DNA from: Patescibacteria group bacterium
GTDB lineage: Bacteria; Patescibacteriota; Minisyncoccia; Phycocordibacterales; PALSA-1337
Assembly (NCBI GenBank): GCA_018971685.1
Contig: JAGXAG010000004.1
Coordinates: 2,416 to 66,415, forward strand
Length of the DNA stretch: 64,000 nucleotides
Reading direction: 5' to 3'
Shown: one piece after another, positions 5,664 through 50,349 of the stretch
Layout: the number at the start of each line of letters is the position of its first letter
Position numbering within the stretch: position 1 is the first letter of the stretch
Position numbers and translations under genes: made by a program
The notes under the pieces: generated by a model
Seen by the model: the letters and a program-made list of their open reading frames with translations, nothing else
Database searches by the model: none
What the model was told of the DNA's origin: nothing

Positions 5664-5783
5664 AATCCTCCGTTCTGGCGGCTAGCTACTTTCGCCAAAA
5701 AGACTATCATCGCCGCAACTGCGTTTCACTGCCGTGTTCGGAATGAGAACGGGTGGTGCCACAGCGCCAAACCACCAGAACGC
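5664..5783 (-). rRNA. rrf: 5S ribosomal RNA
   Basis: The reverse complement reads cctgcgttctggtgg...ccgttctcattccgaacacggcagtgaaacgc...ccgccagaacggagg. Helix I ends pair, and the sequence aligns with the E. coli 5S internal blocks (CCGAACTCAGAAGTGAAACGCCGTAGCGCCGATGG). Confidence 0.85.
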
Positions 5784-6004: not shown

Positions 6005-9080
<3,076 letters not shown>

Positions 9081-15351: not shown

Positions 15352-15410
15352 ATAACAAATTCGTCATTAAAATGTTATCAGTTTGTAATCAGATTGTAAT
15401 TTCGAATCGG
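15352..15410 (+). promoter_or_regulatory. conserved promoter module copy B upstream of toxin gene 1
   Basis: tTCGTCAttaaaatgttatcagttTGTAATcagatTGTAAT. The ATG of MPYEKD… lies about 15 nt downstream, giving a near-leaderless transcript. Confidence 0.5.
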
Positions 15411-15845
15411 TATAGTTTACTGATGCCATACGAGAAAGACCTAAACAGCTGGAACGAATTCAGTAAGAAACTCGAAACTGTCGAGCCGCCCTATTTCAGA
15501 GAACAAGAAATCTGGTGGATTGCATTCGGCACTAACATAGGCGTAGAAATCGACGGCAAACACGAACTCTTTGAGCGGCCCGGCATCATATTCAAAAAAT
15601 TGAATCGCGAATACGCCTTGGTCATTCCCATAACAAGAACCGAGAATAAAATTCCAAAAATACATGTGCCAATATCGTGCGCGGGAATAAAGAAAGGATC
15701 AGTTGCCACCATCAGTCAGATAAGATCTATGAGCTCCAAAAGATTGTTGCGTAAAGCAGGAGTATTGCCGCTGAATCAATTTGCGAAATTGCTGGATAAA
15801 TTCATGGTAATGGTTTCAACGGCGGATATGCAAGTTACGGACTGA
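15372..15845 (+). CDS. MazF/PemK/EndoA-family endoribonuclease toxin (paralog 1) with a ~27-aa N-terminal extension
   Basis: REQEIWWIAFGTNIGVEIDGKHELFERPGIIFKK…YALVIPITRTENK matches the MazF/Kid core (GDIWxVxFxPxxGxExxKxRPxLVIS…PxTS). Probable true start MPYEKD at 15423, since the ORF-track start lies inside the promoter. Confidence 0.7.
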   Translation: MLSVCNQIVISNRYSLLMPYEKDLNSWNEFSKKLETVEPPYFREQEIWWIAFGTNIGVEIDGKHELFERPGIIFKKLNREYALVIPITRTENKIPKIHVPISCAGIKKGSVATISQIRSMSSKRLLRKAGVLPLNQFAKLLDKFMVMVSTADMQVTD

Positions 15846-16004: not shown

Positions 16005-16057
16005 TTTTCGTCATTAAAATGTTATCGGTTTGTAATCAGATTGTAATTTCGAATCGG
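16005..16057 (+). promoter_or_regulatory. conserved promoter module copy C upstream of toxin gene 2
   Basis: cgttaaattTTCGTCAttaaaatgttatcggttTGTAATcagatTGTAAT. Confidence 0.5.
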
Positions 16058-16459
16058 TATAGTTTACTGATGCCATACGAGAAAGACCGAAACAGCTGGA
16101 ACGAATTCAGTAAGAAACTCGAAGCCGTCGAGCCGCCCTATTTCAAGGAACGGGAAGTTTGGTGGACCTCAATTGGCGTTAATATCGGCCATGAGGAGGA
16201 TGGTAAAGGCCCCGCTCTCTCAAGGCCGGTTTTGATACTGAAAAAATTCGGAAAATATACTTTCCTTGGAATACCTTTGTCGACGACAAAAAGAGTTGGA
16301 GCGCTTTATCGCCATTTCTCTTTTCTCCCGGAAGTAGATAGTGTAGCCTTGCTCGCACATACAAAATCATTTGACTCCAGAAGACTGATCAAGAAGATCG
16401 GAACCATTGCGGATAAAGATTTTTGCGCCATGAGAAAAGCCGTCAAAGATTTACTCTGA
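16019..16459 (+). CDS. MazF/PemK/EndoA-family endoribonuclease toxin (paralog 2)
   Basis: KEREVWWTSIGVNIGHEEDGKGPALSRPVLILKK…FLGIPLSTTKR…SVALLAHTKSFDSRRLIKKIGTIADKDFCAMRKAVKDLL aligns end to end with B. subtilis EndoA/MazF. Probable true start MPYEKD at 16070. Confidence 0.7.
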   Translation: MLSVCNQIVISNRYSLLMPYEKDRNSWNEFSKKLEAVEPPYFKEREVWWTSIGVNIGHEEDGKGPALSRPVLILKKFGKYTFLGIPLSTTKRVGALYRHFSFLPEVDSVALLAHTKSFDSRRLIKKIGTIADKDFCAMRKAVKDLL

Positions 16460-36748: not shown

Positions 36749-37396
36749 TTACAGGTGTGATTCCTTTATGGCCTTATTTATGTGTTTGTTCAAAAGCACC
36801 CGCTTTGGAACCAACACATCCAATAATTCAGTGTTGATTTCGCATGATTTCAAACGATCGCCGAACTCAGCCGAGTCGCCTATATAACCAAGCAGGCGCA
36901 AAATCCTGGCGACGGTCAATGACTCCAGTGTCGACAGTCTCTCCGCGTTCAACTCCGGTTGTTCGCAATTTTCCAAGAATTTATTGCACTCCAAGACGCA
37001 GTCGAACAATTCCGGATGCGCCTCTTCGCCGTGAAGAAACTGCTTCAATAATGCAGCAATCTTCGCGACGAGTTCGAGGGAGTCGCCCGAGACGGAACAA
37101 GCCGGTTTTTGCGCAATCGGCGAATGCTGCTCGCAAAAACCGGCTTGTTCCGTTTCGGGCGCCACTATTTCACATGCATCCGTCAATCGCCAAAATTCCC
37201 TGCCGCGCACGAACGAAAATTCACCGAAAGAATAATTCTGGACAAATGGCCGCAATTTCGACTTTTCCAACCGTATTCCCTGCGCCGATGCCATGACCAG
37301 TCCCAGATCCTTCGTGAAGATGAATAAAATCTTGCCGGCGTCGCCGTAGGTTTTCGACGCGATTACCAATCCACAAGTGGTGCGTATTTCATGCAT
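36749..37396 (-). CDS. recO: DNA repair protein RecO
   Basis: N-terminal OB-fold-like GLVIASKTYGDAGKILFIFTKDLGLVMASAQGIRLEKSKLRPFVQNYSFGEF. Start overlaps the ileS stop. Confidence 0.65.
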   Translation of the reverse strand: MHEIRTTCGLVIASKTYGDAGKILFIFTKDLGLVMASAQGIRLEKSKLRPFVQNYSFGEFSFVRGREFWRLTDACEIVAPETEQAGFCEQHSPIAQKPACSVSGDSLELVAKIAALLKQFLHGEEAHPELFDCVLECNKFLENCEQPELNAERLSTLESLTVARILRLLGYIGDSAEFGDRLKSCEINTELLDVLVPKRVLLNKHINKAIKESHL

Positions 37397-40300
37397 TATT
37401 CTTTCAGGCCGAATGATTCTCCGACCTCAATCGCTCTAAGTCCCGTTGCCTTCTTCAGTTCATTGCCATATTTTTTCACCAAGCCTTCCAGATCTTTCGT
37501 AACTTCAAGTACGGCAATATCGCCCACCGTCAATCCTTTTTCCTTGCGCAAGTCCTGAATTTTTCTTATAAGTTCGCGAAGGTCGCCCTCCTCTTTCAAT
37601 TCCGGCGTGATATTCGTGTCCAACTCCACTTCACCGGCGATCGAATCGTCGAATACGACTTCTTTTACATTTACTTCATCCCTTATAAGTCTCAATAATT
37701 CCTCATTCAAGGCCTCGGATTTTTTATTCGATTTGCCATTTGAATTTTTTACTTTAAGCTTTGCCAACGGCTGGCGAACATTTATTTTGGCCGCCATTCT
37801 CGCCTCCAACCCTTTCGACGCGATTCTTCTCACTTCTTCCATATCATCCAATAATTTATGCTCACCTGTGTCGGGTTTGCCCCGCGAAGCTTCGGCGTAG
37901 TGGGGCCACTCTTCCAAGTGTACGCTTTCCAGCTGACCACCCGCTTCTTGGTACAAATAATCAGCGAAGAACGGCGTAAACGGCGCCATTATTTTCGCCA
38001 GCGTGATGAGAATATACTTCGTCGTATTCAAGGCCTCTTCCCTGCTTTTACCGTCTTCTTTGAACCGATCCCTGGATCTCCTCAGATACCACTGCGAGAG
38101 ATCGCCTACGAAATCGCGGATAGCGCGCGTCGGCTCGAAGAATAAATAGTCGTCGAGATTTTTCGTGACATTCTCGATCAGCCAATTCATTCTGGAAACA
38201 ATCCACGCGTCAAGAACATTTTTCGAAGCGGTTTTGGTTATTGTTTCTTGGTTATTGGTTATTCCCCCTGTATACAGCTTATAAAACGCCAGTACATTCC
38301 CTGCCAAGTTGAAAACTTTCTTGACCGTTTCGTCCACCGTCTTCTCGTCGAAATTTTTTGAATCCCCCGCCTGATTGATCGAATACATCCAGAAGCGCAA
38401 GGCATCCACGCCGTATTTTTCCATCATTTCCCACGGATTGACCACATTGCCTATATGCTTAGACATTTTCTTACCCTTGGCGTCCAATAAATGTCCGAGG
38501 CACACGACATTCCGGTAAGCCTTGCCTTTGCCCATCAAAGTTCCCACGGCATGCAATGTGTAGAACCAGCCGCGCGTCTGATCGATGGCTTCGGAAATGA
38601 AATCCGCCGGATAACTCTTTGATTGGTTTTCGCCAGGCGCACCATCTATGTATTCTTTGTTCTCGAACGGATAGTGGTCCTGCGCAAACGGCATCGCACC
38701 GGAATCGAACCATACATCCATGACTTCTTTCACTCGCGACATTTCACCGCCGCATTCGCACTTGAGCTTAACTTCGTCGATGAACGGGCGGTGCAGATCT
38801 AGCTCGTATTCGGCATTGTGAGGCAATATTGAGAAATCGATTTTGCGCACCTCGGCTTTATCCAAGTATTCGTTCATTTCGTACTCGATTGATCCCGCCC
38901 TATCCAACCCTTTAGCAACCGCCAGAAGCATGACGGCAGGCGTACCATGGGTGATGATTAAAATTTTTTTACCTTGGTATTTCGATTCTATTTCATATAA
39001 AAAGTCGCCAACTCGGTTTTTTATCGAACCGTACAGTTCGCCCCTGAGCGGCATTATCTCGAACCTCTGTTGGAAAGGGTATGAATCGGCAAAACCGGCG
39101 CCATTTTTTCTGTCCCAATCACCGAAACCTAGTTCGTGCAGACGCTCGTCCGTTATCACCCGACTTTTATCGAGGCCGAGCTTCCCCCTCAATATCTCAG
39201 CCGTCTCCTGAGTTCGAGTCAGAGGTGAAGTGAATATGATATCCGGCAACGCTTCCTTGAATATATCTGCGGCTTTTTCTACTTGTTGCCTACCGGCTTC
39301 AGTGAGATGATATCGTTCTTTCGGATCGTCATCCAAAATGCCCGCCACATTATTTTCCGCCTCGCCGTGACGCATGACAAAATAGGTATTGCGCGGCTTT
39401 TGCTTGATCTCTTCGACCGAACCGACAACTCGCCTCTTGCCGCATTTATCGCATGACCATACCGGCAGCGGCGTGCCCCAGTAACGCTCGCGGGAAATCG
39501 CCCAATCTTTTACTTCGCGCAACCATTCGCCGAAACGGCCTTCCTTGATGTGTTCCGGTTCCCAATGGATACCTTCGTTCTCTTTGACCAGCACATCGCG
39601 CAATTTCGACATGGCGATATACCAAGAATCGCGCGCGTAATAAATAAGCGGCGTATGGCAGCGCCAGCAAAAAGGATAATTGTGCTCGTATTTTTCCTTG
39701 GCGAACAAAAGCTTGCGACTCGCCAAGTCTTTTATTATCGCCACATCGGTCTTCTCATCTTTGACAAAAGCACCTGCCAAGAACCCAGCCTCTTTCTTGA
39801 ATGTTCCGTCTTCATTCACCAGATGATACTTCGGCAAACCGACTTTGCCGCCAAGCACAAAATCATCCTGACCGTACATGACCGCCGTATGTACGATGCC
39901 CGTACCGTCATCCGTAGTGACGAAGTCAGCACCACAGACCTTGAATGCATTGCCGAGTTTTTTCTTCTCTTCACCGGAAATATTGTCGGACAGGAACGGA
40001 TATAGAGGTTCGTATTGAAGATTGACGATGTTGTATCCTTTTAATTGGGAATTCACTTCAACAAAAGCGTGATGCCCTTGAGGTATAGGCATAAATGTAA
40101 GCCTGTCTTTTGCAATAAAATAAACCTCCGGCAATATTTTATCTGAGACATCTTCAATCAATCTTACTCGTACATAATCAATTTTTGCACCGACTGCCAG
40201 AGCAACATTCCCTGGCAAAGTCCATGGCGTCGTTGTCCAGGCTAATATAAATGTATTGTCATCACTCATGAAATCACCGATTTTCTGCCCGACTTTGACT

Positions 40301-40932
40301 TTAAACTTCACCGTCACCGCCAAATCCTTAACATCTTCATACCCTTGCGCCAATTCATGGGAAGATAATGCGGTGCCGCATCTGGGACACCACGGCACTA
40401 CCTTGTAGTCCTTGTAAAGCAATCCGTCGTCGTCAACCTTTTTGACAATATTCCAAAGGGATTCAATATATTCCGGCTTGTAGGTAATATATGGTTTTTT
40501 CAGATCAATCCAATAACCGATCCGATCGGTGAACTCTTCCCATTCGTGCACGAATTTCCACACGCTTTCTTTGCATTTGTCGTTGAATTTGGCGATGCCG
40601 TAGCTTTCGACTTCTTTCTTAGACTTCAGGCCGAGCTCTTTTTCAACCTGTATTTCAACAGGCAAACCATGCGTATCCCAGCCGCCCTTGCGCCGCACAT
40701 GGTAGCCGCGCATGGTTTTGTAGCGCGGTATAGCGTCCTTGAAGGCGCGCGCCTCGAGATGGTGTATGCCCGGGTGGCCATTCGCGGTCGGAGGACCTTC
40801 ATAGAAAATAAATTCTCCTTTTGGCGCCTTGCCCGCCGGCCATTTATTCAGGGACTTTTCGAAAATACCCTTCTCTTTCCAAAAAACCAGTACCTTCTCC
40901 TCGCGCTTTGCGTAAACGGATTTTTTATCCAT
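37396..40932 (-). CDS. ileS: isoleucine--tRNA ligase carrying an internal histidine-phosphatase (PGAM-like) domain insertion
   Basis: HIGH-type motif PPTANGHPGIHH; DWAISRERYWGTPLPVW; KMSKHIGN. Between the two zinc-knuckle halves (CDKCGKRR … KCECGG) sits a ~197-aa segment RNTYFVMRHGEAENN…ITHGTPA with the RHG/H motifs of the histidine phosphatase superfamily. Confidence 0.9.
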   Translation of the reverse strand: MDKKSVYAKREEKVLVFWKEKGIFEKSLNKWPAGKAPKGEFIFYEGPPTANGHPGIHHLEARAFKDAIPRYKTMRGYHVRRKGGWDTHGLPVEIQVEKELGLKSKKEVESYGIAKFNDKCKESVWKFVHEWEEFTDRIGYWIDLKKPYITYKPEYIESLWNIVKKVDDDGLLYKDYKVVPWCPRCGTALSSHELAQGYEDVKDLAVTVKFKVKVGQKIGDFMSDDNTFILAWTTTPWTLPGNVALAVGAKIDYVRVRLIEDVSDKILPEVYFIAKDRLTFMPIPQGHHAFVEVNSQLKGYNIVNLQYEPLYPFLSDNISGEEKKKLGNAFKVCGADFVTTDDGTGIVHTAVMYGQDDFVLGGKVGLPKYHLVNEDGTFKKEAGFLAGAFVKDEKTDVAIIKDLASRKLLFAKEKYEHNYPFCWRCHTPLIYYARDSWYIAMSKLRDVLVKENEGIHWEPEHIKEGRFGEWLREVKDWAISRERYWGTPLPVWSCDKCGKRRVVGSVEEIKQKPRNTYFVMRHGEAENNVAGILDDDPKERYHLTEAGRQQVEKAADIFKEALPDIIFTSPLTRTQETAEILRGKLGLDKSRVITDERLHELGFGDWDRKNGAGFADSYPFQQRFEIMPLRGELYGSIKNRVGDFLYEIESKYQGKKILIITHGTPAVMLLAVAKGLDRAGSIEYEMNEYLDKAEVRKIDFSILPHNAEYELDLHRPFIDEVKLKCECGGEMSRVKEVMDVWFDSGAMPFAQDHYPFENKEYIDGAPGENQSKSYPADFISEAIDQTRGWFYTLHAVGTLMGKGKAYRNVVCLGHLLDAKGKKMSKHIGNVVNPWEMMEKYGVDALRFWMYSINQAGDSKNFDEKTVDETVKKVFNLAGNVLAFYKLYTGGITNNQETITKTASKNVLDAWIVSRMNWLIENVTKNLDDYLFFEPTRAIRDFVGDLSQWYLRRSRDRFKEDGKSREEALNTTKYILITLAKIMAPFTPFFADYLYQEAGGQLESVHLEEWPHYAEASRGKPDTGEHKLLDDMEEVRRIASKGLEARMAAKINVRQPLAKLKVKNSNGKSNKKSEALNEELLRLIRDEVNVKEVVFDDSIAGEVELDTNITPELKEEGDLRELIRKIQDLRKEKGLTVGDIAVLEVTKDLEGLVKKYGNELKKATGLRAIEVGESFGLKE

Positions 40933-41265
40933 GCCTTACAGCTTACGGCAATTCCGGCTGTTTTTCAATTCGCCTGTATACACCTGCAAATGCGGTCCGG
41001 AATCATATCAACCCACCAATGATTCCGCTACCTTAGATAAGCCGTGGAAGTATTTTCTCCTTCATGCGGACATTCTAGCAGAGAGTTCGCAGAAAATATG
41101 CTTGACAAATAATGTAAAATTTGATAAATAATAATCGGGGTTGGTCCAATAGATAAGGTTCGGAGGTTATCCGCACGCGCAAAGCTCCGGTCCAGTGTGC
41201 GCCGTGCGTACCTTGTCATCCGATCACCGGCTGATCCTATCAGCCGATCGGTTCCTCACAAAATC

Positions 41266-41313
41266 TCCTTCTCTCCCCTCCGCAGTTTGCCATAGATTGC
41301 GGAGCGGGAGAGA
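41266..41313 (-). terminator. glyA terminator hairpin (ctctccc-c-tccgcag … ctgcgga-g-cgggagag)
   Basis: Immediately 3' of the glyA stop. Confidence 0.5.
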
Positions 41314-41318
41314 AATCA

Positions 41319-42608
41319 TCATTGACTCCCCAAGATTCCGTCGATTTTCTTTGCAATCATTTTGAAATCTTTCTCTTTCCTCCCCCTCGTCGTTTCCGCC
41401 GCCGTACCCAATCGAATACCGGAGGGGTCTGCCGGCGAGCGTATGTCGAACGGTATGGTGTTCTTGTTGACGATTATGCCCGCTTTTTCCAAACGATCAC
41501 TCGCCTCTTTGCCGGAAATGCCTCCGGCGCCTTGGCTGTTTTTCTTGCCGTTATTCCAAGTGTCAACCAGGATCAAATGCGAATCAGTACCGCCGGAAAT
41601 CAGTCGCCAGCCGCGGCGGTGTAATTCGTCGGCCAAAACCCGCGCATTCTTGACGATTTGAAAAGCGTATTTTTTGAAAGCAGGAGCGGCGGCTTCCTTC
41701 AGAGCAACGGCAACCGCGGCGATTTGATTGGCATGCGGGCCGCCCTGAAGCCCCGGAAAAACCGCTTTGTCTATCTTCTTATCCAATTCCATCGGATTGC
41801 CGGCTTTGTCTCTCTTGTCTTTCCGTGCGAATACAATCGCCGCCCGAGGTCCGCGCAATGTCTTGTGCGTGGTAGTCGTGACGATATCGGCATAAGGAAA
41901 AGGCGACGGATACGCGCCGCCGGCTACAAGCCCGGCGATGTGAGACATGTCCACCATGAGTAGCGCGCCGGCGGCGTTGGCGACTTCTTTCATTCCGATC
42001 CAATCGATGATTCTCGGATACGCAGTGTAGCCGGAAACAACCACGGCCGGCTTTTCATTCATGGCCAGTTCCATCAATTGGTCGTAATTGATCGTTTCGG
42101 TCGTCGCATCCAAGCCGTAAGGCACCTGCGTCCAGAATTTGCCGCTGGCGGAGACCTTGTGTCCGTGCGTCAAGTGTCCGCCATGGTCGAGCTTCATGCC
42201 CATGATTTTGAAAGTCCCTGAACCTGACGCCGACTGCGTCCGGCTGCCGGAAAGCGCGGTATAGACGGCCAGATTTGCCGGCGATCCCGACAGTGGCTGC
42301 ACATTGGCATGCCATTCATTCGGGTCGAGCTTGAATAATTCCAGGGCGCGCTTGATGCAGAGCGTCTCTGTTTTGTCGATGATTTCATTGCCGCCGTAAT
42401 AGCGCCGGCCGGGATATCCCTCGGCGTATTTGTTGGTCAATTCGGAGCCCAATGCTTCCAACACATCCTTGGAAACATAATTCTCCGAAGCGATCAAATT
42501 TATCACCTTCTTTTGTCGCTTCTTCTCCGCCTCTATCAGCTTTTTGACCTGAATGTCTTTCATGCCGGAGATTATATGGCTATTTTCGACAAAAAGAAAG
42601 CGCGCCAC
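41319..42608 (-). CDS. glyA: serine hydroxymethyltransferase
   Basis: …LIASENYVSKDVLEALGSELTNKYAEGYPGRRYYGG…HLTHGH…TTTTHKTLRGPR…, a canonical SHMT. Likely start MKDIQV. Confidence 0.9.
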   Translation of the reverse strand: MARFLFVENSHIISGMKDIQVKKLIEAEKKRQKKVINLIASENYVSKDVLEALGSELTNKYAEGYPGRRYYGGNEIIDKTETLCIKRALELFKLDPNEWHANVQPLSGSPANLAVYTALSGSRTQSASGSGTFKIMGMKLDHGGHLTHGHKVSASGKFWTQVPYGLDATTETINYDQLMELAMNEKPAVVVSGYTAYPRIIDWIGMKEVANAAGALLMVDMSHIAGLVAGGAYPSPFPYADIVTTTTHKTLRGPRAAIVFARKDKRDKAGNPMELDKKIDKAVFPGLQGGPHANQIAAVAVALKEAAAPAFKKYAFQIVKNARVLADELHRRGWRLISGGTDSHLILVDTWNNGKKNSQGAGGISGKEASDRLEKAGIIVNKNTIPFDIRSPADPSGIRLGTAAETTRGRKEKDFKMIAKKIDGILGSQ

Positions 42609-43058
42609 CCTGACTTAACTGCAGTCGGGTAGCGCGCGATGTTCTCCCAGCCAGTAAGGAGAACCGAAAATTTGGACCTGCCGCACGCATAAAGAATCGT
42701 GCGGCAGGCAACCAACCCAACTTCTCGGAGGAAGTCCGCCAGCGAATGCGGACACAAAAATGCCGGAGAAGTTGTCGAAATTGTGGTCGGCACAGGAACT
42801 TTGTGGCCGTGTTTGGTTTATGGGCCTCGTTGCTGTGTCCGACCATGAGTCCGTAGAAAGGTCTCATCAAAGAGCCACTCTCTACATCGTCAGGATCCAA
42901 GACTGGATCCGGGTTGCCCTTGTTACAGGGCTTTTTTCTGGAAAGGAGCATGTCACCGCGCGCTCCGGATAATAAGCTACACCCATGCAAATAAACTGTC
43001 AAGGACTTATCCACAGTCAGTACACATGTCCGGCATGTGTAATTTGGGGCAGTAAAAA

Positions 43059-43697
43059 TCAGCTGAAACCGCCGATCTCGCGCCGAATGACCGCCAAAAA
43101 ATCTTTTTTGACATCTTCAAGCGGACGATTGGCGTCAATGATAACCGATCTTGACTGGATATAATTCGGAAATTCAAGCAGGGCCCTTCTAACCATTTGG
43201 TGAAATTCGATCGGGCGCGTGTCTATGTGATTGACACGATTCGTCGCTTTGCGGCGGCTAAGGCCTACTTCAGGATCGACATCAAGAACGACATAAAGGA
43301 GCGGCACTAAAACTAACCCCTTTCTGTATTCCCAGAATTTCGCTTCGAGAATACCGCGCGTTGCAATATTCGACCCGGCGTTTACTTGATAAGCCCACGA
43401 TGACGCGTCAGAACGGTCAGTCACCACACATATGCCGGCGTCAACCTTTGGCTTTACGACTTCTTTGACATGATCATAACGATCAACAAACATGAGGTGC
43501 AGTTCCGCCTCGGCGCCGGCCATGGGCGAGAACGGATGATTGAGCAGAACTCTGCGGATGACTTTGCCGTCCGGCGAACCGCCCGGTTCGCGTGTCGTAA
43601 AGACCAGCTCGCCGAAGATGTCAGGTAGCGTTTTGATCAGGGTTGATTTACCTGATCCTTCGCCGCCATCTACTGCTATGTATTTTGGTGTTTTCAT
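43059..43697 (-). CDS. tmk: thymidylate kinase
   Basis: P-loop IAVDGGEGSGKST, FTTREPGG, DRY-like VVTDRSDASSWAYQ and lid LDVDPEVGLSRR align block by block with E. coli Tmk. Confidence 0.8.
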   Translation of the reverse strand: MKTPKYIAVDGGEGSGKSTLIKTLPDIFGELVFTTREPGGSPDGKVIRRVLLNHPFSPMAGAEAELHLMFVDRYDHVKEVVKPKVDAGICVVTDRSDASSWAYQVNAGSNIATRGILEAKFWEYRKGLVLVPLLYVVLDVDPEVGLSRRKATNRVNHIDTRPIEFHQMVRRALLEFPNYIQSRSVIIDANRPLEDVKKDFLAVIRREIGGFS

Positions 43698-43753
43698 AAA
43701 TTCTTTAGTCCTTGATTATACTAACAAAAAGAGTATAAATAACAACCGGAACA

Positions 43754-44704
43754 ATGTATAATCGAACTATGAAAACACTACATCCAGACATTACTTACTG
43801 CAACCTTCTCCGGAATATTATCGAGAATGGTACTCACAAATCAGACCGCACCGGCACCGGAACCATTACAGTCTTTGGTACACAAATGCGATTTAATCTC
43901 GAAGAAAACTTCCCCCTCCTTACGACCAAACGGCTTGGTCCGCGTACTATTATCCGCGAACTGCTTTGGTTCATCGCCGGCGACACTAAATTGCGCACTT
44001 TGCTGGCCAATAAAGTGCACATTTGGGATGAGTGGCCGTTCAAACATTACTTGATCGCCAACAAATTGCCCATCCCAAAAGTTAACAGCCCGGAATGGAC
44101 TGTCCAGATGAAACAGTTTACGGATAAAATCTTGGGTGACGACAATTTCAACGAACAATACGGCGACTTGGGACCGGTATATGGCAAGCAATGGCGAACA
44201 TGGGGAACGCCGGATGGCCGTGTCATCGACCAACTAAAAGACGCGGTGGAAATGATCCGTAACAATCCGGATTCTCGCCGTATCATAGTGACGGCATGGA
44301 ATCCGTCCGACATCGACGAAATGGCTAAAGCCGGATTGCCGCCGTGTCATTGCCTGTTTCAATTCTTTGTCGCCGACGGCAAATTGTCTTGCCAACTGTA
44401 CCAGAGAAGCTGCGACACTTTTCTGGGAGTACCCTTCAACATCGCGTCATATTCATTGCTCACTTTGATGGTGGCGCATGTGACCGGACTTAAGCCCGGC
44501 GAATTCATTTGGACCGGCGGCGATACGCACATTTACCTGAATCATATGGATCAGGTCTATGAACAAATGTCTCGCACACCGAAACCGGCTCCAACGGTGA
44601 AAATCAAACGGCAGGTGCCAGAGTTGTGGGATTTCACCGTCGATGATTTCGAACTTGTTGGATATGATCCGCATCCGCCAATCTCTGCACCGATTGCGGT
44701 GTAG
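43754..44704 (+). CDS. thyA: thymidylate synthase ThyA
   Basis: …[62 protein letters not shown]… Likely start MKTLHPD (43769), directly after an extended -10 TGTATAAT, so the transcript would be leaderless. Confidence 0.9.
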
Positions 44705-44786
44705 TCACTAAGGTCTTTACGCAACGCGCCAACCATCCGGTTGGCGCGATTTTATTACGCCTAGGTCCGACCTTGGTAAAACTCCG

Positions 44787-45209
44787 CTATTTACCCGTAG
44801 AACCGAAACCGTTACCGCCCCTGTCGGATCCGGACAATTCTTCGACTTCTTCGAAGTCGGCCGTTTCGATCTTTTGTATCAGAAGCTGGGCTATTTTATG
44901 CCCTTTTTCAAATTTAAATACTGTGTCAGACAAATTCATAAGGCCAACTAGAATTTCACCCCTGTAACCTGAATCTATTACACCACCAAACACTTTGAGT
45001 CCAAACTTTTGAGAAAGCCCGCTTTTATCCCATATAAGGCCAACATAACCATAAGGTATCTCAATTGCGATACCCGTGGATACACTTTTGCGCTCATGTG
45101 GTTTTATTTCAAGATCTTGCGTACAATAAAGATCAAAACCGGCATCGCTTGTATGGGCATAAGACGGGTTTTTAGAATCAGCACTTAATTTTTTAAATTT
45201 TAATTTCAT
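44787..45209 (-). CDS. dut: dUTP diphosphatase
   Basis: …AHTSDAGFDLYCTQDLEIKP…GLIWDKSGLSQKFGLKVFGGVIDSGYRGEI…. Confidence 0.85.
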   Translation of the reverse strand: MKLKFKKLSADSKNPSYAHTSDAGFDLYCTQDLEIKPHERKSVSTGIAIEIPYGYVGLIWDKSGLSQKFGLKVFGGVIDSGYRGEILVGLMNLSDTVFKFEKGHKIAQLLIQKIETADFEEVEELSGSDRGGNGFGSTGK

Positions 45210-45784
45210 TTATTTACCAATTTTGTTATGGTAATTTCTTCTTCTTTTGGATCTACAAAATGTTGCCAGTCTCTACCGTGGTACCGACCGGTATTTTTAT
45301 AATCTTTAATCGGCTTACTGGATAGCTCGGAAAATAATATCTGTCCTATGCGCATTTTCGGACGCAAAATTATAGGTATCTGATTCATATTGCACAATTC
45401 AAATGTAATATTTAAAAAATGCCCCGGATTAATTATACCTGCGGTATTATGAATAACCAACCCTATTCTAGCCAAACTGCTTTTGCCTGAAAGTTGAATC
45501 AAGTATTTATCTGACCCGAAATAATCAATAGAAGTGCCAAGTATATTCACCCCCGGATGTAAAATAAATACACCTTCTTCTTCGGAAATTATAATCTCTT
45601 TTGGCTCCGGATATATCTTTTTGACAGGATCGATCGCGGGGGTTGACTGGGTATTGTGGACAATAAATTTATTGCCCAGAAGTATATCATAACTCGCCGG
45701 TTGTAAGCGGGTCTCGTCAAAACCTTCGATTAAAATCGAACCATCTTCGATAGCTTTTCTTATGTCTCTGTCCGATAAATACAT
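45206..45784 (-). CDS. dcd: dCTP deaminase
   Basis: MYLSDRDIRKAIEDGSILIEGFDETRLQPASYDILLG…, a trimeric dUTPase-fold deaminase. Overlaps dut by 4 nt. Confidence 0.85.
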   Translation of the reverse strand: MYLSDRDIRKAIEDGSILIEGFDETRLQPASYDILLGNKFIVHNTQSTPAIDPVKKIYPEPKEIIISEEEGVFILHPGVNILGTSIDYFGSDKYLIQLSGKSSLARIGLVIHNTAGIINPGHFLNITFELCNMNQIPIILRPKMRIGQILFSELSSKPIKDYKNTGRYHGRDWQHFVDPKEEEITITKLVNK

Positions 45785-45844
45785 GGATATAACTTATGGT
45801 TACTTTTATAGTATAATACAGATTAAAGACAATTGTAACAATAA

Positions 45845-46375
45845 ATGCTCAAAACCTTCATCGTCGCCGCTCTGTCCGCCGACGGATATATTGCCAGAGA
45901 CGAACGCCATCCGGCGTTTTGGACGAGCAAAGAGGACAAGAAGCGGTTCGTGAAATTGACCAGACGGGCGGGCGTGGTCGTTATGGGCGCCAATACATTC
46001 ACGACCATTGCAAGGCCGTTAAAAGAGCGCGTCAATATAGTCTATTCCCGCTCCAGAAGCTTCGAGGGCGCCGAGATGACCCAAGACTCCCCTTTAGACC
46101 TCCTCGCCAAGCTGGAAGCGCGCGGTTTCAAAGAGGCCGCTATCTGCGGCGGCTCCCATATTTACACCATGTTCATGAAAGCCGATGTCGTCGACCGCCT
46201 GTACCTGACCGTCGAGCCCATCATATTCGGCGCCGGCATCCGCCTATTCAACGAACCGCTTGATAATTATCACCTCGAATTATTGTCCTTGAATAAAGCC
46301 GGAAACGGCGCCATTCTCCTCGAATACAAAGTCGACTATTCCGGTTCGCCGAAAAGTGAACTCGAGGTCAAATAA
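45845..46375 (+). CDS. dihydrofolate reductase-like protein (RibD-C/DHFR family)
   Basis: FIVAALSADGYIARDERHPAFWTSKEDKKRFVKLTRRAGVVVMGANTFTTIARPLKERVNIVYSRS follows the DHFR nucleotide-binding pattern. Co-located with thyA. Confidence 0.65.
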   Translation: MLKTFIVAALSADGYIARDERHPAFWTSKEDKKRFVKLTRRAGVVVMGANTFTTIARPLKERVNIVYSRSRSFEGAEMTQDSPLDLLAKLEARGFKEAAICGGSHIYTMFMKADVVDRLYLTVEPIIFGAGIRLFNEPLDNYHLELLSLNKAGNGAILLEYKVDYSGSPKSELEVK

Positions 46376-46537
46376 AAGTGAGGTGTCGCATTTTCAAAGG
46401 AGGAAACTGTCCGAGCGCGGTTGAAATTTCCGGACAAAACACGAACCGTCATGTCCTCGTGAGTGTTTTGTCCTGAAATTTCCCGCGCGAGTTTTTCCGA
46501 CTTTGAAAATACGACACCTCACTTTTATTTGACCTCA
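46365..46537. repeat. 173-nt nested quasi-palindrome (outer 36-nt arms with 1 mismatch, inner 20-nt arms) spanning the convergent stops of the DHFR-like gene and rplK
   Basis: Outer arms gaggtcaaataaaagtgaggtgtcgcattttcaaag (46365-46400) and its reverse complement (46502-46537). Inner arms gaaatttccggacaaaacac / gtgttttgtcctgaaatttcc. Both flanking proteins end …EVK*, encoded by the arm sequence gaggtcaaataa. Confidence 0.7.
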
Positions 46538-46947
46538 ACCCCCATCTGCCGCGCAGTCCCAGCAATAATCTTCATCGCCGCCTCGACATCGCCGGCATTC
46601 AAGTCCGGCATTTTCTTTTCCGCTATTTCCTTCAATTGCGCTTTCGTGATCGTGCCGATCTTTTCCGTATTCGGCTTGCCCGAGCCCTTTTCCTTATTTA
46701 AGGCTTTCAAAATCAGGCTCGAAGCCGGCGGCGTCTTCAGGACGAAATCATAAGTCCTGTCTTCGTAAACCGAGATGACCACCGGGATCATGTCTCCCAT
46801 CATATTCTTGGTGGCGTCGTTGAACTTCTTCGTGAAATCGCCGATATTCACGCCCGCTTGGCCCAATGTCGGACCCAACGGCGGCGCCGGGGTAGCTTTG
46901 CCGGCGGGAGCGATCACCTTTACCTTTTTGATTACCTTTTTGGCCAT
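46525..46947 (-). CDS. rplK: 50S ribosomal protein L11
   Basis: [48 protein letters not shown]…. Confidence 0.9.
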
Positions 46948-46986
46948 ATTGTTTGGTATGCTAGCATAAGTTGATTAATAAACAAG

Positions 46987-47043
46987 TTTACAGTTTACAA
47001 TGATAAATCATCAATTCGCTAATAACTTATCATTGTAAACTGA
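46987..47043. repeat. REP-like palindromic element, copy ii (gtttacagtttacaatgataa … ttatcattgtaaactg)
   Basis: Lies between the nusG stop and the rplK start. Shares tcgctaataacttatcattgtaaactg…cctcac with copy i. Confidence 0.55.
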
Positions 47044-47052
47044 AAATTATCC

Positions 47053-47598
47053 TCACACTTTTTTCACTTGCAAGAAATCCAATTCCACCGGCGTTTCCCT
47101 GCCAAACATCGACACTAGTACTTTAATCTTGCCCCTCTGCGTATCAACTTCCGAGACCTTGCCTTCGAAATCTTTGAACGGTCCGTCGATAACCTTGATG
47201 AGATCGCCGACAGACACATCTATCGAGTGTTCCGCGCCGGCTTTTGACATTCGCGCAAAGAGCGTCTCGACTTCGTTTTTGTCCAATGGCACCGGGAACA
47301 CGCCCGACCCCACGAAACCGGTCACTCGCGGAGTATTCCTGACCACATACCACGAATCATCGGTCACGATCATTTCCACCAAGACATATCCGGGGTATAT
47401 TTTCTCCTCTTCCTCGACTCGTTTGCCGGCCTTGATCTTTATCTTTTTCTCATTCGGCACGATGACCGCGAATATTTTGTCCTCCATGCCGAGAGACTCT
47501 ATGCGTTGTTTCAGATTGCGCGCCACGGCATTTTCATATCCCGCATATGTGTGGATCGCATACCACGCGCGCTCTCCGGTTGATTGTTGTTTTGACAT
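47053..47598 (-). CDS. nusG: transcription termination/antitermination factor NusG
   Basis: WYAIHTYAGYENAVARNLKQRIESLGMEDKI… (NGN) and C-terminal KOW GDLIKVIDGPFKDFEGKVSEVD. Confidence 0.9.
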   Translation of the reverse strand: MSKQQSTGERAWYAIHTYAGYENAVARNLKQRIESLGMEDKIFAVIVPNEKKIKIKAGKRVEEEEKIYPGYVLVEMIVTDDSWYVVRNTPRVTGFVGSGVFPVPLDKNEVETLFARMSKAGAEHSIDVSVGDLIKVIDGPFKDFEGKVSEVDTQRGKIKVLVSMFGRETPVELDFLQVKKV

Positions 47599-47686
47599 CG
47601 TAAGTAAAGAGTAAATTATAAATTATAAACAAATCATAATATTTAAAATTTACAAATTACGAATTGTTTATAATTTAAAATAACAG

Positions 47687-47863
47687 CGTCAGCAGTTTCG
47701 AAAAAACAAAATCCGAGACGCCCAATAATATCGCCGTCGCGATGGAAACCAGTATTACAAGCACGGTAAAACGGATCGTCAACTGCCTGGACGGCCAATT
47801 AACATGCTTCATTTCCGCTTGCGTCTCTTTCACATATTCCGTGATTTTCATTTTCTTTATCTT
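47687..47863 (-). CDS. secE: preprotein translocase subunit SecE (58 aa, below ORF-track cutoff)
   Basis: Translation of the reverse complement: MKITEYVKETQAEMKHVNWPSRQLTIRFTVLVILVSIATAILLGVSDFVFSKLLTLLF. Canonical position upstream of nusG. Confidence 0.65.
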
Positions 47864-47904
47864 TGGCTTTGCCTTGAATTTAACGCCGACTGAATTTACC
47901 CATT

Positions 47905-47930
47905 TTTATTAAAAAACCCCTGCCGGGGAC
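47905..47930 (-). terminator. terminator (cccctgccgggg + U-run on the minus strand) after gene 48003..48866
   Basis: Read from the sequence. Confidence 0.45.
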
Positions 47931-48002
47931 TTGCAGTTATAAAGGTATCATATTCAGTTTGCCAAAGTCAATGGCCTGGTCTGATCGCGGTATAAATACC
48001 GA

Positions 48003-48866
48003 TCAGTCAATCTCGTAAGTGATCGTCACATTGCTTGTCACTTTCTGTTCGCCCGTCGGCACTTCAGGCACGGGCGCGGCCGATGTTTCCATCGCTGCCG
48101 CTTTTATGCCGCCGCCAAGGCCGTAGATCGGCATCGGACCGCTTGATTCATAGAAACCGGTGATGCGCCCCAGCGACACGCCCAATTGTTTCGCCAGCGT
48201 AGCCGCCTTGTCTTTGGCATCGCTTATCGCTTTCGCGCGAGCTTCAGCTTTCACCGTTTCCGGCTGGTCAACCGAGAAAGCCAGACTGTCAACATTTTGC
48301 ACACCCAGCGATCCGATCGAAGTGAATATCGAACCCGCTTTGCTCAAATCGCGCACTTTGACTTGGATTGTCTGGCTCACTTCATAGCCCGTCAAGACTG
48401 ATTTGCCGGGCGGGCAATATCTTATTGCGGTTACTGGCACAGATACGGTAGCAACACCGGCTCCCGAAACCATCGGCGGTACCGGAGCGGAAGCGTTTTC
48501 CGTTGTGCAGACCGCATTTTGGTATTCATAGTGGGGGTTGATGTTGTATGACAATGTCGAAATATCTTTGTCGGAAACGCCGGCATCGCGTACGGCTTTC
48601 AAGGCATCGTTTATTTTCGCAGTCGCGGCGGCTTGTGCGTCCGCTACGGTTTTGGCCGTTTCCGAAACTGTGAACGAGAATGTCGCGACATCCGGCACCG
48701 AAAGCGCATCGCCGGTGCCATTTATCGTTATCGTGTTCACGGCCGGCACATCTTTGCCGACGAAACCGATCGACTTTAATTCTTTTACAGACATCACTGC
48801 CAGGAATATGACAAGCAATATTCCCACAAACATGCCCGTTTTCCACACTTTTTCGTGAGTATTCAT
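48003..48866 (-). CDS. SIMPL-domain (DUF541, Omp28-like) periplasmic protein
   Basis: Signal/TM anchor, then TITINGTGDALSVPDVATFSFTVSE…LTGYEVSQTIQVKVRDLSKAGSIFTSIGSLGVQNVDSLAFSVDQPETVKAEARAKAISDAKDKA, typical of SIMPL. Confidence 0.7.
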   Translation of the reverse strand: MNTHEKVWKTGMFVGILLVIFLAVMSVKELKSIGFVGKDVPAVNTITINGTGDALSVPDVATFSFTVSETAKTVADAQAAATAKINDALKAVRDAGVSDKDISTLSYNINPHYEYQNAVCTTENASAPVPPMVSGAGVATVSVPVTAIRYCPPGKSVLTGYEVSQTIQVKVRDLSKAGSIFTSIGSLGVQNVDSLAFSVDQPETVKAEARAKAISDAKDKAATLAKQLGVSLGRITGFYESSGPMPIYGLGGGIKAAAMETSAAPVPEVPTGEQKVTSNVTITYEID

Positions 48867-48935
48867 TGTTTTTATATTTTTAAATAGTGTTTAGTAATAA
48901 ATACAAATATACGAATGATATTTCTATTAAAAATA

Positions 48936-49793
48936 TCACAAATCCAATAAATTTTCAAAAAGCGCCAACACCGTCATCGGTCCCACTCCTCCGGGCACCG
49001 GCGTGATCGCCGCAATAACATCTTTCACCGCGTCAAAGTCAACATCTCCCACTAACTTTCCATCTGCGGTTTTCGAAATACCGACATCGATGATCACTTG
49101 GCCTCTTCTCACATGCTCTTTGCCTACCAATCCCGGCTTGCCCGCAGCGGAAATGATAATATCCGCGGTTTTCGTCTCGTCCGCAAGATCGGCCGTTTTG
49201 CTGTGGCATATCGTCACCGTTGCGCCTTCATTCAGGCACATCGCCGCCACCGGCTTGCCGACCAGCATCGATCGCCCTATTACGACCACTTTCTTGCCGA
49301 AGAGTTTCATCCCATAATGCGCCATGATCTCGCTCACGCCGCGCGCAGTCGCTGGAAATATCGCGTCTTTTTCGCCGCCAAGCCATCTTCTTATGTTTGC
49401 GGCCGTCAATCCGTCCGCGTCTTTCTTGGGGTCGATTGCGTCGATAACCGCATCTTTATCTATATGTGCCGGCAGGGGCAGCTGTACGATTATTCCTTGA
49501 ATGTCATGCTCGGCATTACATTCGCGAACAATGCCGATCAGATCGGTCTCAGAAATATTTTCATCCGCTTGCATATGCTTCACCGCCGCCCCGATCCTTT
49601 CCGCAAACGCCTTTTTGGCACGGACATACGAGTCGGAATCGGCGCGCGCGCCGACTTGAATAATGGCCAAGGTCGGAACATTTCCGGAAACACTCGAAAA
49701 TGCCTTCACTTTCTCTACAAGTTGCGGCATGAACGCCTCGCGCGCCTTCCGTCCGTCCAAGATGATGGATTGCATTTTAACAACAAACAACAT
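48936..49793 (-). CDS. folD: bifunctional 5,10-methylene-THF dehydrogenase / methenyl-THF cyclohydrolase
   Basis: …AIIQVGARADSDSYVRAKKAF…DIQGIIVQLPLP…DPKKDADGL…VVVIGRSMLVGKPVAAM…TPVPGGVGPMT. Confidence 0.9.
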   Translation of the reverse strand: MLFVVKMQSIILDGRKAREAFMPQLVEKVKAFSSVSGNVPTLAIIQVGARADSDSYVRAKKAFAERIGAAVKHMQADENISETDLIGIVRECNAEHDIQGIIVQLPLPAHIDKDAVIDAIDPKKDADGLTAANIRRWLGGEKDAIFPATARGVSEIMAHYGMKLFGKKVVVIGRSMLVGKPVAAMCLNEGATVTICHSKTADLADETKTADIIISAAGKPGLVGKEHVRRGQVIIDVGISKTADGKLVGDVDFDAVKDVIAAITPVPGGVGPMTVLALFENLLDL

Positions 49794-49830
49794 AACACAT
49801 TTTATTGACTTTTAGTATATAGAGAGTAGT

Positions 49831-50349
49831 GTGTTATCTCAGGAGTTACTTATGAAAAACGATATTATTGCGGTGTTCAAACATCATGTGCCGAGCCAGG
49901 ACAGGCCATTCGGTTTTTTCTCTTCACTGCACCCGATCGGTTCGGTATTCAGAGGCGCCTTTGAATTGAGAGAGGGCAAGGATTCAATCTGCGTGGGGTT
50001 CCTGTCACGAAACATGCCGATGCTGAGGCCGAGCCATGAGCTATCCCTGTATGCGGCGTCGGATAATGTCCACTCTCTGGCGGACGCTATCATCGAATGC
50101 GATCGTGACGGATTCGGCGTCGAACCGTGCGGTGACGACGCGTCGTGGCCTTTGTGGAAATGGCAACTCTTCGTAGCATGCCACGCAATAGTGCAGATAT
50201 GCATCCCCAGCATCTCGATGTTAGTTACAACATGTCCGCAAGAGGAGATTTACGGTTTCTCTTTCACTAGAGAACACGCGGAAGGGATCCGGAATGTGAC
50301 CATGCGTGATACCGGGGAACTGATTAAAAATTTCGGTCAATTTCTGTAA
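49831..50349 (+). CDS. hypothetical Cys-rich protein
   Basis: 172 aa, no recognised motif. Codon usage is plausible. Lies between folD and rlmI-like on the opposite strand. Confidence 0.3.
   Translation: MLSQELLMKNDIIAVFKHHVPSQDRPFGFFSSLHPIGSVFRGAFELREGKDSICVGFLSRNMPMLRPSHELSLYAASDNVHSLADAIIECDRDGFGVEPCGDDASWPLWKWQLFVACHAIVQICIPSISMLVTTCPQEEIYGFSFTREHAEGIRNVTMRDTGELIKNFGQFL

Follow-up and report, generated by a model that had tools for sequence, protein, structure and literature searches.

Why should an isoleucyl-tRNA synthetase (IleRS) carry a second enzyme inside its own catalytic core? The question is raised by the ileS gene in a 64,000-nucleotide stretch of DNA (hereafter, the window) from a bacterium of the Patescibacteria group (assembly GCA_018971685.1, contig JAGXAG010000004.1, positions 2,416 to 66,415 of the forward strand). 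Aminoacyl-tRNA synthetases (aaRSs) are among the best-studied enzymes, and to our knowledge unrelated catalytic domains nested inside the catalytic core of a bacterial aaRS are essentially undescribed. Here, an uncultured bacterium with a tiny genome holds, within its essential IleRS, a complete and apparently active phosphatase. Judged from its residues and predicted fold, the inserted segment is a genuine branch-1 member of the histidine phosphatase (HP) superfamily, in the phosphatase-like subgroup, and we regard its identity and its evolutionary origin, as read below, as close to certain. The synthetase and the elements that frame the insertion are the following.

37396..40932, minus strand: ileS, a type-2 IleRS with a nested phosphatase, 1178 amino acids (aa), assigned from the open reading frame (ORF), TIGR00392, Pfam and fold
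40759..40770, minus strand: G55-I-H-H58, the GxHH variant of the class I HIGH motif, read from the sequence
39442..39453, minus strand: C494-D-K-C497, first half of the zinc knuckle, directly before the insert; both Cys invariant
38803..39393, minus strand: nested HP domain (His_Phos_1, PhoE/CobC-like), aa 514-710, assigned from PF00300, the PhoE match and the AF2 model
38752..38760, minus strand: C725-E-C727, second half of the zinc knuckle, directly after the insert; both Cys invariant
38455..38469, minus strand: KMSKH (KMSKS loop), aa 822-826; K822, M823, S824 and K825 invariant

The 1178-aa IleRS frame that a sequence-only reading of this DNA had reported is present at these coordinates, unbroken and with no in-frame stop (code 11), and every peptide quoted in that reading was found: PLPVWSCDKCGK (aa 488-513), RNTYFVMRHGE (aa 514-524), ILIITHGTPAVMLLAV (aa 657-672) and the resumption of the synthetase (aa 711-729). 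The IleRS sequence reaches EEIKQKP at aa 513, the insert runs from RNTYFVMRHGE to AEYE over aa 514-710, and IleRS picks up again at aa 711. The extra segment of about 197 aa had been recognised correctly, although the coordinates assigned to it (38805-39395) lie 2 nt off and out of frame, the correct ones being 38803-39393. Its placement in the zinc-knuckle loop also holds, as the segment falls between C494/C497 and C725/C727 in an alignment with Thermus thermophilus IleRS (1ILE), of which residues 455-479 match residues 488-512 of the window protein. Within the catalytic (Rossmann/HUP) domain, it is the second half that hosts the insert. A sister IleRS that lacks it (locus L086) has KCEKCGG where the second Cys pair stands and contains about 36 aa between the Cys pairs, versus about 230 aa in the window protein.

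The His_Phos_1 family (PF00300), which the same reading had expected from a profile search, matches aa 518-686 over positions 2-171 of its 194-position profile (E=3.2e-30; 105.7 bits, cut-off 21.7) and interrupts the Pfam match to tRNA-synt_1. The best PDB match of the insert by sequence is PhoE (1ebb/1h2e, E=2e-13). An AlphaFold2 (AF2) model of the domain alone has a predicted local distance difference test score (pLDDT) of 94.4 and a predicted template modelling score (pTM) of 0.90, and its top Foldseek match in the PDB is again PhoE (1h2e, E=7e-15, template modelling score (TM) 0.78). The nearest folds, with TM 0.75-0.80 and all of about 200 aa, are PhoE, Rv2419c (glucosyl-3-phosphoglycerate phosphatase), PspA (phosphoserine phosphatase), the riboflavin-pathway HFP of Aquifex and CobC; true phosphoglycerate mutases (230-250 aa) rank below these. 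In NCBIfam, the cut-offs were not reached for CobC (TIGR03162, 69-74 bits versus 162.9), PspA (NF045917, 49-54 versus 350), SixA (TIGR00249, 33-38 versus 74.5) or GpmB (NF002901, 34-41 versus 261). The insert family has a specific signature of its own, N-x-Y-[FY]-x-[LM]-R-H-G.

The residues that would carry out catalysis can be placed by alignment to PhoE.

39364..39372, minus strand: R521-H522-G523, catalytic Arg and phospho-accepting His; invariant; aligned to the RHG of PhoE
39349..39351, minus strand: N528, Asn of the RHGExxxN motif; invariant
39214..39216, minus strand: R573, second phosphate-binding Arg (SPLTRTQETA); invariant; aligned to PhoE TSTSGRALETA
39133..39135, minus strand: E600, probable general acid (RLHELGFGDW; PhoE-type E-x-x-x-G-x-W); invariant; aligned to PhoE RLREIHLGDWEG
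38947..38949, minus strand: H662, second active-site His (ILIITHG); invariant; aligned to PhoE LIVTHG

R521, H522, N528, R573, E600, E632, R640 and H662 are kept in 81/81 sequences and G523 in 80/81, and the RHG triplet is also invariant in two further ortholog alignments (120/120 and 61/61), as are all six catalytic residues. The R-H-G...R...E...H signature on which the sequence-only reading relied is thus intact, and is invariant in the orthologs that have the same insert. Over its whole length, the domain is only 47% identical among orthologs, versus 72-73% for the catalytic parts of IleRS. Such a pattern marks a working enzyme with a surface that can drift, the catalytic set being under purifying selection. 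The catalytic apparatus is intact, and the domain is predicted to be an active phosphomonoesterase that acts through phospho-H522.

The insertion is well attested elsewhere. The 120 best database homologs, which are 60-67% identical and come from many independent assemblies, all have PF00300 and PF00133 together; where sources are named, they are Patescibacteria, Paceibacterota, Taylorbacteria and Parcubacteria. A scan of species-representative genomes returned 392 related loci, and the insert is contiguous with both IleRS flanks in all 80 of the best loci examined (named hosts: Ca. Taylorbacteria, Nomurabacteria, Campbellbacteria, Paceibacterota and Minisyncoccia). Taken together, the nested architecture occurs in more than 200 independent orthologs or assemblies of Paceibacteria/Parcubacteria, within the candidate phyla radiation (CPR), and the earlier view that the segment is not an assembly join is borne out by the 120 homologs and 80 loci. 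The GC content across the insert (0.46-0.52) is the same as in the rest of the gene, and an identical protein has been deposited independently at NCBI (P0001). With a continuous ORF, an independent deposit, more than 200 recurrences and nothing found in favour, the probability of an assembly, frameshift or gene-calling artefact, taken jointly with that of a self-splicing element, is practically nil. As regards an intein or mobile element, there is no Hint or intein Pfam match and no Cys/Ser nucleophile at the N-terminal junction (KQKP/RNTYF); at the C-terminal junction a conserved PHN lies nearby, and the next residue is variable (Ala in the window protein).

The synthetase around the insert looks functional on its motifs, with KMSKH, the editing motifs WTTTPWT/GTGIVH and GIHH all in place. 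It exceeds the cut-off of the NCBIfam ileS equivalog TIGR00392 (863 bits versus 621), and Pfam detects tRNA-synt_1, Anticodon_1 and the type-2 C-terminal domain DUF5915. The full-length AF2 model has a mean pLDDT of 85, with 92-96 in the insert portion, and its best solved fold is IleRS2 of Priestia megaterium (8c8w/8c8v, E=7e-77, 33% identity). The editing motifs WTTTPWTLPGN and GTGIVH are kept in the window protein and in its orthologs. The KMSKS loop reads KMSKH in this genome, versus KMSKS as the ortholog consensus. The GIHH motif stands in the context PPTANGHPGIHH, and the consensus of 60 orthologs is PPTANGRPGIHH. In IleRS2, GxHH corresponds to HxGH with positions 1 and 3 swapped and confers mupirocin hyper-resistance (Brkic et al. 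2023, PMC10485003); the swapped motif in an IleRS2 background would place the window enzyme in this subclass. The motif is not linked to the phosphatase, since an ileS accompanied by a free-standing HP gene (L003) has the canonical HYGH. The window protein was also compared with the IleRS class that bears an N-acetyltransferase (GNAT) domain (NF040702), which was ruled out (307 bits versus 1999; no GNAT Pfam match).

Where might the domain have come from? When the full library was searched with only the insert as query, most matches were IleRS proteins or fragments, together with stand-alone proteins of about 190-205 aa and fusions to other aaRSs. In L086 the gene order is argS (514 aa), a 200-aa His_Phos gene, ileS (942 aa, without the insert) and recO, and ileS begins at the base right after the phosphatase stop. 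The same HP-ileS abutment is seen in L003, and the gene tables of L086, L003 and L088 agree in arrangement; three free-standing homologs on very short contigs (L004, L005) have too little sequence around them to inform this reading. A metagenome scan seeded with five stand-alone proteins returned 551 loci, of which the best 80 were classified by tblastn and ORF analysis as follows.

50 loci: free-standing HP ORF followed directly by ileS (gap -40 to +136 nt)
2 loci: free-standing HP ORF with ileS 0.6-1.4 kb further on
4 loci: free-standing HP ORF at which the contig ends
2 loci: free-standing HP ORF with no ileS in the sequence at hand
22 loci: HP domain inside IleRS

Among these best 80 loci, ileS is directly next in 50 of the 58 with a free-standing HP gene. 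Both halves of ileS are visible at 58 loci, where the upstream gene alone occurs 37 times, the insert alone 21 times and the two together never; the free gene and the insert are mutually exclusive at each locus. Of 80 genomes that have the nested form, 63 have argS upstream and 68 have recO downstream. The window shows the internalised state: recO is retained downstream as in L086, argS is displaced and the serine hydroxymethyltransferase (SHMT) gene lies upstream, and there is no second His_Phos copy or ArgRS gene elsewhere in the 64 kb.

36749..37396, minus strand: recO, which overlaps the ileS stop by 1 nt; conserved downstream neighbour (RecO_N)

We infer that the nested domain is the internalised form of the phosphatase gene of about 200 aa that is located upstream of ileS in sister lineages (argS-HP-ileS-recO), the direction of change being a presumption. 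An N-terminal HP-IleRS fusion was found at none of the 80 loci even though the genes abut, which suggests selection for an internal position. The locus would then provide a clean natural example of a neighbouring gene that became an internal domain of its neighbour, and a natural split version exists in the form of the free HP and the insert-less IleRS.

The knuckle is one of several places at which such domains are found. In some IleRSs with a normal short knuckle (for example P0172 and P0213), His_Phos domains follow the WF(D/E)SG strand (site B) and stand where the anticodon-binding domain is joined on (site C); six proteins, on separate contigs as long as 1.06 Mb, make up the P0172 cluster. 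Another protein (P0135) has three copies, one at site B, one at site C and one behind the second Cys pair, and two others (P0245, P0214) have two copies on either side of a degenerate knuckle. The RHG triplet is retained in all the extra IleRS copies. Besides the knuckle, IleRS thus hosts related domains at three or more sites (A', B and C), with up to three copies per protein. Valyl-tRNA synthetase (ValRS) also occurs with His_Phos nested at two different loops (P0188, at L002 6001-9225; P0278; and P0145, which has four copies), at a locus without the HP-ileS neighbourhood. Among the 120 nearest arginyl-tRNA synthetases (ArgRSs), three have a C-terminal His_Phos domain (P0225, at L001 6001-8070; P0281, at L088 5001-7163; and P0280). 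In one of these fusions ileS is the next gene; in L001 it is recO, with no ileS at the usual position. The fusions probably arose by loss of a stop codon between neighbours in the argS-HP-ileS cluster.

The relatives of P0172 are IleRSs of Gracilibacteria, Peregrinibacteria and Peribacteria, 1200-1860 aa in length, and nearly all have His_Phos. In the same region, many add GNAT, P-loop kinase (AAA_33/Zeta-toxin-like), DUF559, serine-hydrolase or Y1-transposase-like inserts; the set of such 'multi-tool' enzymes comprises P0399, P0410, P0412, P0439, P0449, P0459, P0460, P0475, P0479 and P0481, and no published description of this family in the three groups was found. One Gracilibacteria-type member (P0459) has no His_Phos and instead has two HAD phosphatase domains with intact DxD at site B, which argues that phosphatase chemistry is the selected trait. 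Elsewhere, a serine-hydrolase (PF06821) gene at L170 7332-7841 stands beside an insert-less ileS, and P0449 has a domain of this kind nested at aa 562-734; here too, a neighbour may have turned into an insert.

The phosphatase is tied to IleRS in three genetic formats, as an abutting upstream gene, nested at several loops, and fused to the neighbouring ArgRS. The link spans hundreds of genomes with minimal gene sets, in which the genes that are kept are presumably needed. Linkage of this kind across minimal genomes argues for a step or a protective function attached to isoleucine charging in CPR bacteria.

What might that function be? The sequence-only reading had proposed hydrolysis of a phosphorylated small molecule or of a tRNA- or aminoacyl-adenylate-related substrate, or regulation of the enzyme, all of which stay candidates. 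In the reading we prefer, to which we assign a probability of roughly 40%, the domain takes a terminal phosphate off a nucleotide-type ligand of IleRS and in this way supports the aminoacylation cycle. Taken separately, a functional coupling of the phosphatase to IleRS is somewhat probable, and the specific class of substrate is doubtful. The domain would act as a metal-independent phosphomonoesterase: the terminal phosphate, bound by R521, R573, N528 and H662, would be attacked by H522 to give a phospho-histidine intermediate, with E600 as the proton donor to the leaving group. Nesting would keep the phosphatase at a 1:1 ratio with IleRS and tethered to the catalytic core. The first-choice substrate would be a 3'(2')-phosphorylated acceptor end of tRNA(Ile), which would be made chargeable; 5'-AMP or a related nucleotide would be the second choice. 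A nucleotide-type ligand is favoured because the only partners are class Ia aaRSs and because internal positions are preferred to an easy N-terminal fusion. A nucleotide or tRNA end is further favoured because kinase and phosphatase in one polypeptide recall end-healing enzymes: the P-loop kinase of the Gracilibacteria IleRSs has the RNA-repair protein Pnkp1 as its best PDB match, a weak one (E=7e-4). Enzymes within the histidine phosphatase superfamily can strip terminal phosphates from oligonucleotides and ATP (PMC2737285).

Several observations weigh against this assignment. The nearest solved relatives all act on small metabolites, and adenylate, shikimate and zeta-toxin kinases follow close behind Pnkp1 among the matches of the kinase insert. 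The nested domain is mildly acidic (mean net charge -4, range -11 to +4) with no conserved basic patch; the mean net charge of the ArgRS-fused copies is +10, and charge is uninformative as a proxy for RNA binding. Why damage to a tRNA end should be specific to IleRS is left without explanation. Operon adjacency alone can be non-functional, as with ribF-ileS in Proteobacteria, a pair not known to be linked in function. Insert-less relatives with no HP gene near ileS also exist. Finally, a neighbour-joining tree of 152 domains is star-like and does not separate movement of the gene into ileS from movement of the domain out of it; many short 'free' proteins in the representative set are fragments, and the tree was not relied on.

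The domain could instead be a housekeeping phosphatase for a small metabolite (a sugar-, glycerate-, serine- or ribityl-phosphate) that was co-transcribed with ileS solely for the sake of expression and then captured in permissive surface loops of a large essential protein, with no mechanistic link to aminoacylation. We rate this as rather unlikely. It accords with the closest solved structures listed above, from PhoE to CobC, all of which act on small molecules, and with the lower conservation of the insert relative to the IleRS core (47% versus 72-73% identity). The unrelated inserts taken up by Gracilibacteria IleRSs (GNAT, kinase, DUF559, Y1 transposase-like and serine hydrolase) suggest that the loops are simply permissive, and a phosphoserine phosphatase would fit the one-carbon and deoxythymidine monophosphate (dTMP) cluster of the window (SHMT, ThyA, Tmk, Dut, Dcd, dihydrofolate reductase (DHFR) and FolD). 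Neutral capture, however, poorly explains why the domain was nested independently at no fewer than four sites of IleRS and also in ValRS, whose locus has no HP-ileS neighbourhood to borrow from. Nor does it readily explain that a single protein can hold several copies, that insert and upstream gene exclude each other and that the easy N-terminal fusion by stop loss is absent, and all specific NCBIfam phosphatase equivalogs score far under their cut-offs.

A protective role is conceivable, in which the tethered domain removes an inhibitory phosphate set by kinase or pyrophosphokinase toxins on IleRS (on the KMSKS loop or close to it, for example) or on the 3' end of the tRNA, or inactivates a phosphorylated IleRS inhibitor, alongside the GNAT, kinase and hydrolase inserts of its relatives. 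The co-inserts of Gracilibacteria (GNAT, P-loop kinase, serine hydrolase, HAD/His_Phos) do belong to classic small-molecule-modifying and detoxifying classes. GNATs are immunity factors against aminoacyl-mimic aaRS inhibitors, with TfxH and microcin C as precedent (bioRxiv 10.64898/2025.12.02.691738), and the GxHH motif, linked to mupirocin hyper-resistance (PMC10485003), is consistent with past pressure on IleRS. Phosphatases of proteins and of phospho-histidine belong to the superfamily (SixA match of 33-38 bits), but SixA and the protein-phosphatase families are not the closest relatives. Neither a kinase toxin aimed at IleRS nor a phosphorylated inhibitor of it is known to us; the domain has no match among the PADLOC defence models, and HP and GxHH are not linked, as the free-standing HP of L003 accompanies a canonical HYGH. 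On balance, this explanation is distinctly improbable.

A broader view, which we hold to be unlikely, is that the IleRSs of CPR Paceibacteria and Gracilibacteria, and sporadically ValRS, are platforms for tethered 'guardian' enzymes: phosphatase, kinase, acetyltransferase and esterase. The modules would repair or unblock the tRNA substrate, for example by clearing a 3'-phosphate or pyrophosphate that ribotoxins or toxSAS-type enzymes leave behind, or would disarm toxins and inhibitors aimed at IleRS, and the histidine phosphatase would be the commonest and oldest of them. If true, this would amount to cis-acting protection of the tRNA end or of the target, which is not known for any aaRS.

Alternatively, the fold could be kept for structure, tRNA positioning or ligand sensing, binding a phospho-ligand without turnover in a manner comparable to the leucine-specific domain of leucyl-tRNA synthetase. 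The insert would lie in the same general region, upstream of KMSKS and in the Rossmann fold's second half, as the idiosyncratic insertions of class Ia enzymes, and the high-confidence model suggests a rigid, well-packed domain. Such a non-catalytic module is nonetheless very improbable, given that the two His (the nucleophile and the second one), the two Arg, the Asn and the acid Glu are absolutely conserved in more than 200 sequences and in every extra copy, and that the HAD replacement in P0459 argues for selection on chemistry.

That the domain is a cofactor-dependent phosphoglycerate mutase (dPGM), after the automatic label K15634 (gpmB) of its relatives, is hardly tenable: the best NCBIfam match by E-value is indeed the archaeal-type dPGM model NF038349, and the source name of one relative reads COG0406/K15634, but the scores fall far short (79-83 bits versus 225 for NF038349, 23 versus 81.7 for TIGR01258, and 20-41 versus 261-366 for others including PRK14115), the nearest folds are phosphatases of 200 aa with mutases ranking lower, and the motif after the acid Glu is of PhoE type (ELGFGDW, cf. 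EIHLGDWEG in PhoE). In dPGM this motif is of the E-R-H-Y-G type. The automatic 'phosphoglycerate mutase' label (K15634) may distort metabolic reconstructions of CPR genomes. We see in the domain neither a glycolytic mutase nor a passenger without relation to IleRS, and the removal of a terminal phosphate in the service of aminoacylation stays our preferred account.

The remaining features of the window are listed below.

40933-41318: intergenic region upstream of ileS, 386 nt and unusually long, with strong hairpins just after the SHMT stop (fold z-score -1.9)
41322-50346: one-carbon/dTMP cluster around ileS, with SHMT, thymidylate kinase, thymidylate synthase, dUTPase, dCTP deaminase, DHFR and FolD
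15372-15842 and 16019-16456, both plus strand: two adjacent PemK/MazF-like endoribonuclease toxin genes
12168-15113, minus strand: a 982-aa protein whose sole domain match is an LCAT/serine-esterase-like segment at aa 368-555
5673-5779, minus strand: 5S rRNA
6015-9071, minus strand: 23S rRNA

For the 386-nt region, no T-box or other leader RNA was matched in Rfam at E≤1. Cleavage by MazF-type enzymes leaves cyclic-phosphate RNA ends. The 23S match extends over 3057 nt versus 2925 positions in the model and may hold a small insertion. No 16S rRNA or tRNA genes were found in the window.

How does the nested phosphatase compare with known systems? The insert shares fold (TM 0.75-0.80), catalytic set and size with PhoE/YhfR of Geobacillus stearothermophilus (1EBB, 1H2E), PspA, Rv2419c, CobC and the Aquifex HFP. 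These are stand-alone metabolic enzymes, whereas the insert, 22-27% identical to them in structural alignments, is nested in an aaRS or encoded directly upstream of one. The host resembles P. megaterium IleRS2 (8C8U-8C9D) and the GxHH class in fold, DUF5915 and GxHH, and differs in about 200 extra residues that would form a second enzyme inside the zinc knuckle. A precedent for an enzyme domain embedded in IleRS is provided by NF040702 ('isoleucine--tRNA ligase, N-acetyltransferase domain-containing'); Gracilibacteria relatives combine GNAT with His_Phos, whereas the window protein embeds a phosphatase without GNAT. A branch-1 histidine phosphatase is also joined to a nucleic-acid enzyme in the Rv2228c-type RNase H/CobC-like acid phosphatase (PRK07238). 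The insert aligns to this profile (aa 513-686 on positions 176-348) with 77-80 bits versus a cut-off of 326, and Rv2228c is an end-to-end fusion with RNase H rather than a domain nested in an aaRS. The likeness to T4 Pnkp and bacterial Pnkp1 is one of analogy only: Gracilibacteria IleRSs hold a phosphatase and a P-loop kinase in one polypeptide, but His_Phos is not homologous to the Pnkp phosphatases and the window protein has no kinase. The HAD phosphatase that replaces His_Phos in P0459 belongs to the class of the T4 Pnkp phosphatase.

In full-text searches of the literature, no description of a phosphatase nested in or partnered with IleRS was found, and the recent papers on IleRS evolution that were consulted (PMC10485003 among them) mention neither the phosphatase nor the CPR enzymes. 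The architecture is listed automatically in databases, for example under the JGI name 'isoleucyl-tRNA synthetase/phosphohistidine phosphatase SixA/...GNAT'. The description of the arrangement as very unusual, made from the sequence, is apt for the aaRSs described so far; in Paceibacteria the arrangement is clade-wide, and it is also found in Gracilibacteria. The component parts, a GxHH IleRS2 and a PhoE-like phosphatase, are known, and it is their combination that is surprising to an aaRS specialist, without being categorically new.

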